This document shows, piece after piece, positions 8,786 to 48,662 of a stretch of DNA of 64,000 bases. This stretch comes from Eledone cirrhosa (lineage: Eukaryota), in contig OZ024746.1 of NCBI GenBank assembly GCA_964016885.1, positions 74,152,001 through 74,216,000 on the forward strand, given 5' to 3'. The notes under the pieces were generated by a model that saw only the letters and a program-made list of their open reading frames with translations, was not told where the DNA came from and did no database searches. Each line of letters opens with the position of its first letter. Position 1 is the first letter of the stretch. Both the position numbers and the translations under genes were made by a program.

Positions 8786-8826
<41 letters not shown>

Positions 8827-8839
8827 TAACAGATTGAAG

Positions 8840-8886
8840 TTTAAGCAAAGAATCGCTGCTTTCACCCTTAACGAGATCTTCTGAAA
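8840..8886 (-). ncRNA. Hammerhead-like motif with CAGAAGA core (family G) in a 100-bp AT-flanked unit (8821-8922)
   Basis: Minus strand: ttt-CAGAAGA-tctcgttaagggt-GAAA-gca gcgattctt tgc-TT-aaa. Same family as 48554. Confidence 0.6.
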
Positions 8887-10150: not shown

Positions 10151-10594
10151 CAATTATTATCATGGTCATTTGCATTGTGACGCACACATATATACACTCC
10201 ATATATAAATATATCCTTCCTATTCCTCCAACTGATTTACAATAAAGCACAGTCCCCCTCTACACACACTCAGATACATACATATATGTATGTATATATA
10301 TATATATATATATATACACATAATAGTGCTCACAAGCTATCTTACAGATATTGTATTTAGCAGTGACATTTCTTTTTATATGGTGAATATTATATATTGC
10401 GTTGCTTTTGTCTGTATGCGTTGTAAATACATTAGTTTCGCTTTGTAAACTTGTAGGCTATTCATATAGAGGTTATTCTCTCCTCTCCCAGGTGACATAA
10501 CACTTGGGTTGATCGACGTAGGCGACGCCACGTTGACATTGAAAGCAGGAAAATGTATTACACGAAAAAGGAAAATGAATATATATATATATAT

Positions 10595-10771
10595 GAACGA
10601 GTAGGACCCCGACGGCTGAGCTCAATCCGTTTCGACGGCTAATTCTGGACGAAACGGCTTGAGCTCAGCCGTCGGGGTCCTACTTGTTCATAATACCCAC
10701 TCTACTAGCCTAAGTATTGAGTACTTTGGTGCGTTATGTTCCATCTGGTTCCTTACCACATTTCCTTCGTT
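10595..10771 (+). mobile_element. Family F AT-flanked unit: palindromic HHR 3' half plus tail
   Basis: Inverted arms at 10595-10689; GAAAC-ggct tgagctc agcc-GTC-gggg. Same family at 24130 and 44758. Confidence 0.75.
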
Positions 10772-24065: not shown

Positions 24066-24129
<64 letters not shown>

Positions 24130-24131
<2 letters not shown>

Positions 24132-24330
24132 CGAAGGAAATGTGGTAAGGAACCAGGTGGACCATAACGCACCAAAGTACGCAATACTTAGAGTAGTAGA
24201 GTGGGTAATAGGAACGAGTAGGACCCCGATGGCTGAGCTCAAGCCGTTTCGACGGCTAATTCTGGACTAAATTTAGTCCAGAATTAGCCGTCGAAACGGC
24301 TTGAGCTCAGCCGTCGGGGTCCTACTCGTT
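24130..24330 (-). mobile_element. Family F unit with 118-bp near-perfect palindrome (24213-24330)
   Basis: Axis at 24271/24272 (ggactaaa|tttagtcc) with one mismatch; each arm carries GAAAC-stem III-GTC. Confidence 0.85.
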
Positions 24331-24332
24331 GC

Positions 24333-24439
<107 letters not shown>

Positions 24440-24593
24440 ATGTGTGTGTGTGAGTGTATGTGTATCTTTGTGTGTGCGTATATATATATATTGAACAATG
24501 AAAACCAAGGGTGAATTTAGGGTTTAATTAGTTCTACAATCGTTTTGGAAGATTGATAGACCAGGATAAATCGATTGAGTAACTAATTGCTAT

Positions 24594-24985
24594 TAATTGT
24601 TTCTACTTTTAGCACAAGGCCAGCAATTACCCAGTGCATTACTGGTACTTTATTTTATCGATCCCGTAAGGATGAAAGGCAAAGTTAACCTCGGCGGGAT
24701 TTGGACTCAGATCATAAAGGGGCATAACTCTTTGCTGCAAAGCATGGCGTCCGACCCTCTACCGATACTGCCAATCATACAGCTTCATATTATTAGTTTG
24801 GATGTGGATTGGCAGTATCGGTAGAGGGTGGACGCCATGCTTTCCAGCATAGTAACGTCCCTTTACGATCTGAGTTTAAATCCCGCCGAGGTTAACTTTG
24901 CCTTTCATCCTTACGAGGTCGTTAAAATAAAGTACCAGTAATGCACTGGGTAATTGCTGGCCTTGTGCCTAAAGTAGAAACAATT
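24594..24985. mobile_element. Head-to-head pair of SINE family 1 (- 24594-24775; + 24803-24985 with 15-bp TSD)
   Basis: TSD attattagtttggat at 24789-24803 and 24983-24997. Confidence 0.9.
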
Positions 24986-25204
24986 ATTAGTTTGGATATA
25001 ATAGATCCATCGAGTCATCTTCAAGCACTAGTCGTTGTGTTTAGATTGCATTGGTCAACCAATATATAACTGTAACTCGTATGAATGCTCAACCAAATCT
25101 AATATAATGATATCCCATTAAAAAATAAACACTAGATATTTTACTTCTATACTATATGGAATATTAACAGTGTTATTGGACTCACCATAGTCAAATAGAG
25201 ACAA

Positions 25205-39904: not shown

Positions 39905-40333
<429 letters not shown>

Positions 40334-42161: not shown

Positions 42162-42565
42162 ATATTAACAAATAAAAACCATATTTATTTCATTATACAT
42201 ATTTCAAGGACAACAAAGCAAATTATGGTGCGCTTTCATCAGATAAAATATAATATAGATCAGTTTTATAAACAAATATTGATATACCCTTAAAAGAATG
42301 CTTCCAACAGACATGGCCGCATTCTTTTAAGGGTATCTCAATATTTGTTTATAAAACCGATCTATATTATATTTTATCTGATGAAAGCGCACCATAATTT
42401 GCTTTGGTGTCCTTGAAATATGTATAATGAAATAAATATGCTTTTATAAATATAGTTTCCATTTGTTAATATATTGTATTTTTACTCCAAAAATTTGTTG
42501 AGTGCTTTATATCAGTTATAAAAATATTTGCTTGTTGTATCCCAACACATTAAATATAACTTCTA
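42158..42565. mobile_element. Family C head-to-head foldback with two HHRs (42188-42248 -, 42372-42432 +)
   Basis: ~145-bp inverted arms around a ~17-nt spacer; ttttat-CTGATGA-...-GAAA-tatgta-TA-atgaaa. Confidence 0.88.
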
Positions 42566-44147: not shown

Positions 44148-44693
44148 CGTTTCTGAATTTGTTTAGCAAGATTCTTTATCTTAAAACGTGTGTTGAAACC
44201 GATATTTTATACTTTGGGAGGGTCATGTTGCCAATAAGAAACACACGCACCAGTTGCTTTCACTTCAATTTATTATAATAAATTTATAAATTTAGGAATT
44301 TATAAATTTCCGGTTGGTTGGTTGGTTCCACAACCAAATGATTGTTTATATATTGTCAAAGTTCTTTCGTCACACATTCAGTGACCTCTTCAGTGACTGG
44401 TGATTCTTTTCTTTGTTTTTGTGCTTCTTCTTTGTTTTTTTAACAATAAAACCAGATGGCGTAGGAAAGAAAAAAGGAGAGGCACAAAAACAAAGAAAAG
44501 AATCCCCAGTCACTGAAGAGGTCACAGAATGTGTGACGAAAGAACTTTGACAATATATAAACAATCATCTGGTTGTGGAACCAACCAACCAACCGGAAAT
44601 TTTTAAATTCCTAAATGTATAAATTTATTATAATAAAAGTGAAAGCAACTGGTGCGTGTGTTTCTTATTGGCAACATGACCCTCCCAAAGTAT

Positions 44694-44700
<7 letters not shown>
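44145..44700. mobile_element. Family D head-to-head dimer with two HHRs (44355-44397 -, 44509-44551 +)
   Basis: ~220-bp inverted arms; gtca-CTGAAGA-g-gtcaca gaatg tgtgac-GAAA-gaac-TT-tgac; (AT)n on both sides. Confidence 0.9.
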
Positions 44701-44757
<57 letters not shown>

Positions 44758-44759
<2 letters not shown>

Positions 44760-45012
44760 CGAAGGAAATGTGGTAAGGAACCAGGTGGACCATAACGCAC
44801 CAAAGTACTCAATACTTAGTGTAGTAGAGTGGGTAATAAGAACGAGTAGGACCCCGACGGCTGAACTCAAGCCGTTTCGACGGCTAATTCTGGACTGGGT
44901 CCAATCCTGGACCCAGTCCAGAATTAGCCGTCGAAACGGCTTGAGCTCCTGGACCCAGTCCAGAATTAGCCGTCGAAACGGCTTGAGCTCAGCCGTCGGG
45001 GTCCTACTCGTT

Positions 45013-45014
<2 letters not shown>
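44758..45014 (-). mobile_element. Family F palindromic unit with internal ~41-bp duplication
   Basis: Axis ggactgggtcca-atcc-tggacccagtcc; cctggacccagtccagaattagccgtcgaaacggcttgagct occurs twice. Confidence 0.85.
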
Positions 45015-45067
<53 letters not shown>

Positions 45068-47434: not shown

Positions 47435-47805
47435 TTGCCAATACACGCATCCCAATATTCATTCTACTGAAGAAGCATGTCTGTATTGCGTTTCCGAAAA
47501 TGCTCTCAGCCCCACCGTCATAGCCACACGATGTGCTCTTGGCTCTCAAAACGAGAGACTTTTTGAGGAATTTTAAATTTTTCGGAAAACATCAGATGTC
47601 AAAACCTACGATCGTAGTGTTGTGGATTCAATTCCTGGACCGGGATGTATGTTGTGTTCTTAAGCAAAACTCTTCCTTTCACGTTGCTCCATTTTATGCA
47701 GCAAAAACGAGTAGCAGCAGGTGTTAGAAGCTCCAGGTTTGGGACAGACTCCAGATTTTAGAGAAGTCCAAAGACGTCTAGAATAGAGAATGGGTGGCCT
47801 GGAGA

Positions 47806-47930
47806 ATTCTTCTTCTTCTTTGCCCACTTCGTAGAGGTAAAGTCCTGAAAAACTCCTTCCAGCGTGTCCTGTCAGAAGCAACCGTCTACAACTGATCTGG
47901 CTGAATCACATAAGGGCGCCACTAAGCAAT
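47806..47930 (-). mobile_element. RTE 3'-end fragment with (GAA)n tail
   Basis: cttccagcgtgtcctgtcagaagcaaccgtc resembles 60054-60085. Confidence 0.55.
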
Positions 47931-48112
47931 TCAATAGACTTGATGATCGAGTAAAAAAGCTAAACATGGAAGGTGCCTTTATATACCCCTTATTCTGATG
48001 TTCTCAGGCTGTTTATTTTAACTCATATGCTATCAGTCCTGTTAAGAGACCAACACCAAATACCAGCCCGCAGATCGCGGTAATTTCTATGCAGGTTATA
48101 CTTGGAGTAATA

Positions 48113-48442: not shown

Positions 48443-48657
48443 AGTAATAATAATAAATTTGAAGACTAAAATCCAAAGAGGGCTCGATAAGGATAAATAT
48501 ATATCAAATATATAAGAACCGTAGAGCAAATATTTATTAAAATAACAGATTAAAGTTTAAGCAAAGAATCGCTGCTTTCACCCTTAACGGGATCTTCTGA
48601 AACTAACAAAGTCAATCTGTAAACGATACTTTGCTTAAACTTTAATCTGTTATTTTA

Positions 48658-48662
<5 letters not shown>
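48443..48662 (-). mobile_element. Family G unit with HHR-like motif at 48554-48604 and partial foldback
   Basis: Minus strand: agttt-CAGAAGA-tccc gttaa gggt-GAAA-gca gcgattctt tgc-TT-aaact. Confidence 0.75.

Follow-up and report, generated by a model that had tools for sequence, protein, structure and literature searches.

Short palindromes in (TA)n tracts of Eledone cirrhosa are probably joined head-to-head ends of a Penelope-like retroelement, with centres that likely mark its transcription start

Introduction

How does a near-perfect palindrome come to be centred on one half of a hammerhead ribozyme while the other half is missing? The question is raised by the inverted repeat at 24213–24330 of a 64,000-nucleotide window of the Eledone cirrhosa genome (contig OZ024746.1, positions 74,152,001 to 74,216,000; "the window" refers to this whole stretch). 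The original prediction held that a single nascent cDNA copies the stem II hairpin of the ribozyme, folds back and primes itself, and that ribozyme structure repeatedly produces palindromes in this way. It knew of no earlier description of this; palindromes at inverted junctions of Penelope elements, with self-priming on an antisense template as the proposed origin, are reported in the available text of PMC3846280. Moreover, inverted truncated pLTRs with a tail on one side are presented as standard in Penelope-like elements (PLEs) in the sections of PMC8557442 at hand, which state the origin of the inverted ends and of the one-sided tails as unresolved. In the open-licence papers and bioRxiv preprints searched, the inversion axis was not linked to a transcription start or to twin priming in PLEs, and the accessible part of the octopus repeat annotation (PMC13282606) mentions neither palindromes nor ribozymes. 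The element class is known and the feature is real; the clustering of the axes leads to a new testable start-site rule, which we did not find in print.

A head-to-head insertion in (TA)n

The palindrome is confirmed as spacer-less (118 bp, 98% identity, spacer 0) and as devoid of CUGAnGA in either arm. It forms the central part of a 205-bp insertion, 24130–24334, with (TA)n on either side, and this insertion belongs to subfamily F1 of a family referred to here as F (Table 1; family F positions are numbered relative to the would-be cleavage site). Both arms had been expected to read GAAA, stem III, UH and tail. Indeed, GAAA, stem III and UC are present in each, and the tail is found on one arm only. 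We infer that the A of TCATTT at the junction, 24271–24272, is the transcription start; the same A directly follows the stem II apex loop on its 3' side.

The family F copies in the window, 10592–10771, 24130–24334 and 44758–45017, all belong to F1 and have different junctions, which bears out the prediction that the loops differ among copies. In 10592–10771 more 5' sequence is present in the tail-less arm than in the tailed one, an asymmetry not obtainable from a single fold-back. The window contains 23 matches to hammerhead-like cores against 1.7 expected, and its Rfam scan at the gathering threshold returned no hit. The pair at 40051–40221, thought to be without a CUGAnGA core, does hold one in its minus arm as CCGACGA (CTGACGA in the parent of this family H). 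At 1097 and 48113, where the turn-backs were described as retaining part of the hammerhead core, hammerheads were not established, with no long relative found for the former and one for the latter. The regions beside these two palindromes, 1240–1500 and 47800–48100, resemble pieces of retroelement ORFs, and a CTGATGA...GAAA motif lies at 1303–1340 on the minus strand. In most copies of family E (48534–48661, ~8790–8860) the core is CAGAAGA (U4 to A), making it a second family with a non-canonical core. Several Penelope families accumulate in the same (TA)n tracts.

Table 1. Features of the insertion at 24130–24334 and other head-to-head pairs in the window
Feature	Position	Strand	Description
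Whole insertion	24130..24334	.	Two 3' ends (pLTR end) of an F1 Penelope-like element, head to head within (TA)n
79-nt tail, one arm only	24130..24208	-	Outside the coordinates of the original prediction
Tailed arm, +18 to -45	24209..24272	-	Stem II 3' strand, GAAA (24250-24247), stem III, cleavage triplet, stem I 3' strand
Tail-less arm, -45 to +18	24271..24334	+	Abuts (TA)n directly; GAAA 24293-24296; would-be cleavage site after 24315
Junction, common AT, spacer 0	24271..24272	.	A of parent TCATTT is the end of both arms
(TA)n target, left side	24068..24129
(TA)n target, right side	24335..24360
Family F copy	10592..10771	+	Tail-less arm to -40, tailed arm from ~-24
Family F copy	44758..45017	-	Complex junction: several switches and an internal duplication
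Family H pair	40053..40219	.	Minus arm keeps core with one change; plus arm ends in stem II
Family B pair	42175..42445	.	Complete CTGATGA...GAAA core in both arms; counter-example
Family C pair	44207..44695	.	Complete CTGAAGA...GAAA core in both arms; counter-example
Family E pair	48534..48661	.	Arms end a few nt upstream of core at initiator-like TTAGTT

The parent element

A genome search traced family F to a parent made of tandem units with a period of ~3,542 nt, in which an ORF of 784–786 aa follows directly after the tail; in tandem full-length units the 79-nt tail continues into this ORF. Read by eye, the protein has the RT motifs DIESY, MGATDS and YRDDG and then a C-terminal GIY-YIG-type VIYQ/YIG; compared by eye with section 11 of PMC8557442, as far as that text was available, it also has DKT, CxCx5C, CxxC and CxH, and no CCHH. 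Searches of the family F protein against Pfam (with the partial and the full ORF) and against PDB sequences gave no matches. From these motifs, assigned by eye, the parent appears to be a Hydra-like Penelope retroelement with a C-terminal endonuclease (EN+). According to the available text of PMC8557442, the Hydra clade targets (TA)n and shares with family F the C-terminal GIY-YIG, DKT, the CxCx5C linker, and CxxC and CxH beside E and N. Family F differs by RWR in the place of RWK and by a unit of 3.5 kb against usually <3 kb. Its hammerhead core is U3-A8 or C3.A8 rather than canonical, and its likeness to the clade is one of motifs.

Copies of family F were counted by exact patterns, which gave 9,048 (TA)-joined tail-less ends for F1 and 7,247 for F2, inserted in (TA)n as in the Hydra clade; the genome DNA search with the tail alone had no match. 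The F1 sample comprised the first 93 among the 100 matches listed for the exact tail-less end pattern, taken blind to the junction, with two duplicates dropped. In this sample, 87 of the 93 tail-less arms had an inverted sense arm as their partner, and the tail was present on 82 of these 87 sense arms, an arrangement that, together with the tandem period, fits the EN+ class of PLEs. At locus L335 (G000:C1:91471000–91480999; listed to ~91.49 Mb), near-identical full-length F2 units with open frames stand in tandem, by which F2 appears to be a young subfamily. Other GIY-YIG-type ORF fragments occur near family F insertions at L060 (3404–3757, minus) and L014 (~1950–2300).

Arm ends cluster, junctions differ

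The outer ends of family F insertions are fixed at +18 and +97, and the inner ends cluster at the apex of the parent stem II, as had been predicted for the inversion axes: 60 of the 93 tail-less arms and 49 of the 87 joined partner arms end at −47 to −34 (with an uncertainty of a few bases in arms whose alignment is lengthened by A/T runs or microhomology). Per nucleotide, the stop rate amounts to 0.089 in this interval, 0.007 downstream and ~0.001 beyond −91, the last being an overestimate with two long arms cut by the reference. The stop is sharp, at −44/−45, and 7 of the 93 tail-less arms continue beyond −90. In F2, 22 of 30 arm ends fall at −43 to −35. Genome-wide, core 22-mers of F1 and F2 together number 3,902, compared with 22,945 matches just 3' of the stop, a drop of ~6-fold. 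The junctions themselves are diverse, with microhomology, A/T runs or extra C/G, and 80 distinct types among 87 support the claim that the palindromes arose in separate events. In families B and C the arm ends are diffuse and far upstream of the core, and the stop position relative to the ribozyme shifts between families.

We consider it probable that such a palindrome consists of two 3' ends placed head to head, for which both cut target strands primed cDNAs that ran off the 5' end of the RNA and were then joined. The palindrome centres likely mark the transcription start of the element rather than the ribozyme hairpin.

What sets the stop

Family F arms end on A(−45), part of a TCATTT that conforms to the initiator TCAKTY as given in the available text of PMC4581360; there are three such matches in the 3,542-nt unit, and sites of the looser YYANWY type, counted within one base, cover 7.7% of positions. 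A TATA-like box stands at −27/−25, not at −30. Downstream of the stop, the DPE consensus was not matched; the MTE is matched at 9 of 12 positions, overlaps the ribozyme's own GAAA and is equalled in score at 14 of 3,530 positions. In family D, 13 of 50 arms end 24–26 nt before GAAA and none at 27–53, and the TATA box TATAAATA begins 30 nt upstream of the stop in two subfamilies (spacing by eye). In family E, 9 of 38 arms end at 24–29, on TTAGTT. An initiator A is present at the stop in F, D and E, and a TATA box at −30 in D only. The TATA-like box of F2 is 2 nt closer to TCATTT, and arms reaching −44 to −46 amount to 0 of 30 in this subfamily, compared with 19 of 93 when the method is applied to F1.

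A G that is absent from the parent precedes 9 of the 37 arms ending at −45 and none of 64 read-through copies. The pattern with G before −45 has 232 matches (24 of 28 sampled lie at junctions, 11 of them ambiguous by eye), that with G before −44 has 176 (14 of 31 sampled at junctions). An additional base arises when a reverse transcriptase copies the cap, and we regard the extra G as a moderate sign of a cap.

The alternative that survives best, in our judgement still an unlikely one, keeps the two joined cDNAs and ascribes the stop to the structure or processing of the RNA: at the stem II apex (F) or the end of stem I (D and E), the RNA would be cut, be bound by a protein or make the enzyme stall. 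The F stop immediately follows the apex loop of the predicted F2 fold on its 3' side; the D and E stops are, by eye, the outer base of stem I. The A runs at junctions and the variable loop would fit slippage at the F stop. However, stem II of F1 is weak and absent from the lowest-energy fold (z −1.16), the stop changes its position relative to the ribozyme from family to family, and a structural stop accounts neither for the extra G nor for the 2-nt difference between F1 and F2 nor for the TATA box that D has at −30. A start within the pLTR is described for the Drosophila Penelope transcript in the part of PMC2377424 available. A splice acceptor or branch point was likewise discarded as the cause of the stop, since the junctions lack a constant upstream exon after −40. 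In long copies of family C (L137, L143), GCGCATGCGC, which we take to be NRF1-like, lies ~20–30 nt upstream of the longest arm-end group, a hint of a promoter.

One cDNA or two

That the palindromes are products of reverse transcription agrees with the original prediction; that a single cDNA folds back on stem II and primes itself now appears improbable. The clustering of family F axes at stem II and the subfamily variants common to both arms would suit such a fold-back. Yet the arms show the wrong asymmetry: in 32 of 82 copies the tail-less arm exceeds the tailed arm on the 5' side by 5 nt or more (by at least 15 nt in 19), and these cannot stem from one folded-back cDNA, since a copy cannot outreach its own template starting at the tail. 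The reverse, with the tailed arm further 5', holds for 17 of 82. The arms each hold sequence exclusive to them. Part of the asymmetry could also be due to deletions that removed palindrome centres unevenly at a later time. Moreover, four joined pairs have no common sequence at all, 19 of 51 insert-free junctions, including the geometry of 24213, would imply a loop of <3 nt, and at L210, L222 and L290 the added base is found on both arms. A short fold-back could still aid the join in some copies.

The agreement of the arms at subfamily sites (132 of 136 and 130 of 136) fits one source RNA and copying of one arm from the other alike. C/T differences between the arms of L001–L030, considered as a trace of two templates, proved to be an artefact of query selection, the unbiased test giving concordant arms. 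Just above the stop, the arms of long pairs do differ: within 10 nt, differences occur in 10 of 14 pairs (14 of 140 nt), compared with 11 of 715 in a control stretch without one indel-shifted pair, or 32 of 770 with it. In F parents, for instance at L055, L186 and L189, positions −55 to −46 form a hypervariable 10-nt patch with arm-to-arm differences and exact micro-inversions of the loop. The patch may mark strand transfer or quasi-palindrome switching, and the micro-inversions, which show template switching to occur at this very spot, speak for the fold-back.

The hammerhead as a probable bystander

The fold-back further supposed a parent with CTGAnGA upstream of a long hairpin that is the parent stem II. 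The canonical core (C3-G8) has four matches genome-wide; the F1 parent core is CTGAGAA (C3.A8), found in 29 of 29 long copies and in 1,081 exact genome matches, and that of F2 is TTGAGAA, with a covariant U3-A8 and 2,821 matches. A-to-I editing that restores G8 in F1 is unsupported, the four G copies lying within the mutation background. The structure predicted for F2, obtained with no constraint applied, is that of a type I hammerhead in which the core stays unpaired. The 5' strand of the parent stem II has a different sequence from the one predicted and is kept in 0 of 80 short copies. Given this difference and the weakness of stem II in F1, the perfect stem II hairpin of the short copies is made by the inversion itself and does not derive from the parent stem.

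The absence of the 5' half of the core, rightly predicted for the short copies of family F, follows from the position of the CUGA half upstream of the inferred start. In unselected DNA, 0 of 9 family F arms keep the core. In other families, by contrast, the core is mostly retained (bystander arms in fetched loci: B 56/60, C 25/25, D 29/41, E 22/32, H 5/7, K 4/4), which contradicts both the fold-back and the wider claim that ribozyme structure drives palindrome formation. The hammerhead would rather be a bystander in this process. F1, with its C3.A8 mismatch, nevertheless has at least 9,048 exact ends; this combination of mismatch and copy number suggests, at the level of sequence, that cleavage is unneeded for spread. 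At L116, L119, L118 and L164, a few arms end at or within 1–2 bases of the would-be cleavage site, which may reflect some remaining self-cleavage.

Master copies, antisense templates and chimeras

We give little credence to the idea that a few palindromic masters spread as a non-autonomous MITE-like or retro unit, with an inherited axis. Some junctions do occur two or three times in the sample and the copy number is very high, but a handful of masters is at odds with 80 junction types in 87, with ends made asymmetric by the tail and with the same stop in F1 and F2, the short and long copies of each sharing its diagnostic bases. For the one-sided tail and the diversity of junctions, the insertions were also rejected as MITEs proper, which have symmetric terminal inverted repeats and a fixed interior.

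Self-priming on an antisense template, proposed for rotifer Penelopes in the available text of PMC3846280, predicts the head-to-head orientation and the junction palindromes, and deserves very little credence for family F: one arm would be copied from the other, which is contradicted by the mixed asymmetry and the arm-specific ends, and stops at sense-strand initiators would have no reason.

Zero-spacer palindromes are a known long-read artefact. Fold-back chimeras of library or assembly can practically be dismissed here, given that the insertions have fixed biological ends with (TA)n at either side, a one-sided tail and arms that differ. Among four contig sets compared, from one study that may be the assembly's own, contigs of three runs span the axis, none by 31 letters on both sides.

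Proposed mechanism and known systems

In L1 twin priming, cDNA synthesis starts from the two target strands, and microhomology serves to link the products head to head; the inverted piece comes from further upstream and the 3' end is not duplicated. Unlike in L1, both family F cDNAs would span the same short stretch, which would result in a palindrome. In the mechanism that we favour, the protein would cut both strands of (TA)n, and each target 3' end would prime at one of two RT start sites on the 5' pLTR of the RNA. The two cDNAs, by then ~64 and ~143 nt long, would run off the capped 5' end, where slippage could occur or a base be added, the extra base being copied from the cap. The stop would be the transcription start set by the pLTR promoter, which in family F happens to sit at the stem II apex of the hammerhead. 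The 3' end of one cDNA would then switch to the other via a few matching bases, often after trimming; for the long copies, priming would have occurred at the downstream pLTR of a tandem transcript.

The outer ends +18 and +97 would correspond to two internal RT start sites such as those described for the anole PAc (Poseidon) element, for which the available text of PMC11167929 reports that, in vitro, both target strands are cut and extended from two start sites bounding the tail; these match the two fixed outer ends of family F. PAc also shares with family F the AT-rich target and a ribozyme that is not needed. It belongs to a different clade, and neither inverted repeats nor run-off at a start site forms part of the account in that text.

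Among EN+ PLEs, the sources as available (PMC3846280, PMC8557442, PMC2377424) describe the same head-to-head ends, tail at one end, junction palindromes, microsatellite targets and partial tandems. The insertions of the present genome, however, mostly comprise nothing but the two ends and show a sharp, family-specific 5' stop, the tail measures 79 nt against 30–40, and the published antisense self-priming does not fit the family F data. The minimal type I hammerheads of PLE pLTRs in PMC4209133 resemble family F, as far as the text at hand goes, in a pLTR hammerhead, in a U3-A8 core variant reported among them and in opposite-strand pairs 100–700 bp apart; family F differs by a long stem II, a 5-bp stem III and short copies without the 5' half of the core. 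The non-LTR retrozyme (10.64898/2026.07.22.740005) was rejected as a match: its units, in the available description, are short, head to tail and with complete hammerheads, those of family F head to head and without the core.

A broader version of the mechanism is put forward only tentatively, as a doubtful possibility. Twin priming from two RT start sites on the 5' pLTR may yield strong-stop-like cDNAs that run off at the cap; two of them joined would give the palindrome, and transfer to the downstream pLTR, with arm-specific errors above the stop, the long copies. If this is true, a telomerase-related retroelement has an LTR-like strand-transfer step, and thousands of palindrome centres constitute a fossil map of the transcription start of each family.

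Implications and further pairs

More than 16,000 exactly matching tail-less ends in one family represent a large natural data set on inverted ends, which favours two primed cDNAs over self-priming, and the ends of family F predict start sites at base resolution. The insertions also account for dense, near-perfect short palindromes beside (TA)n that might be mistaken for MITEs or hairpin RNA genes.

At 24590–24990 of the window, and likewise at locus L020, there are head-to-head pairs of a very common SINE-like repeat with their ends directed outward into A/T. Their geometry is that of the Penelope palindromes, and possibly the same machinery mobilises them.
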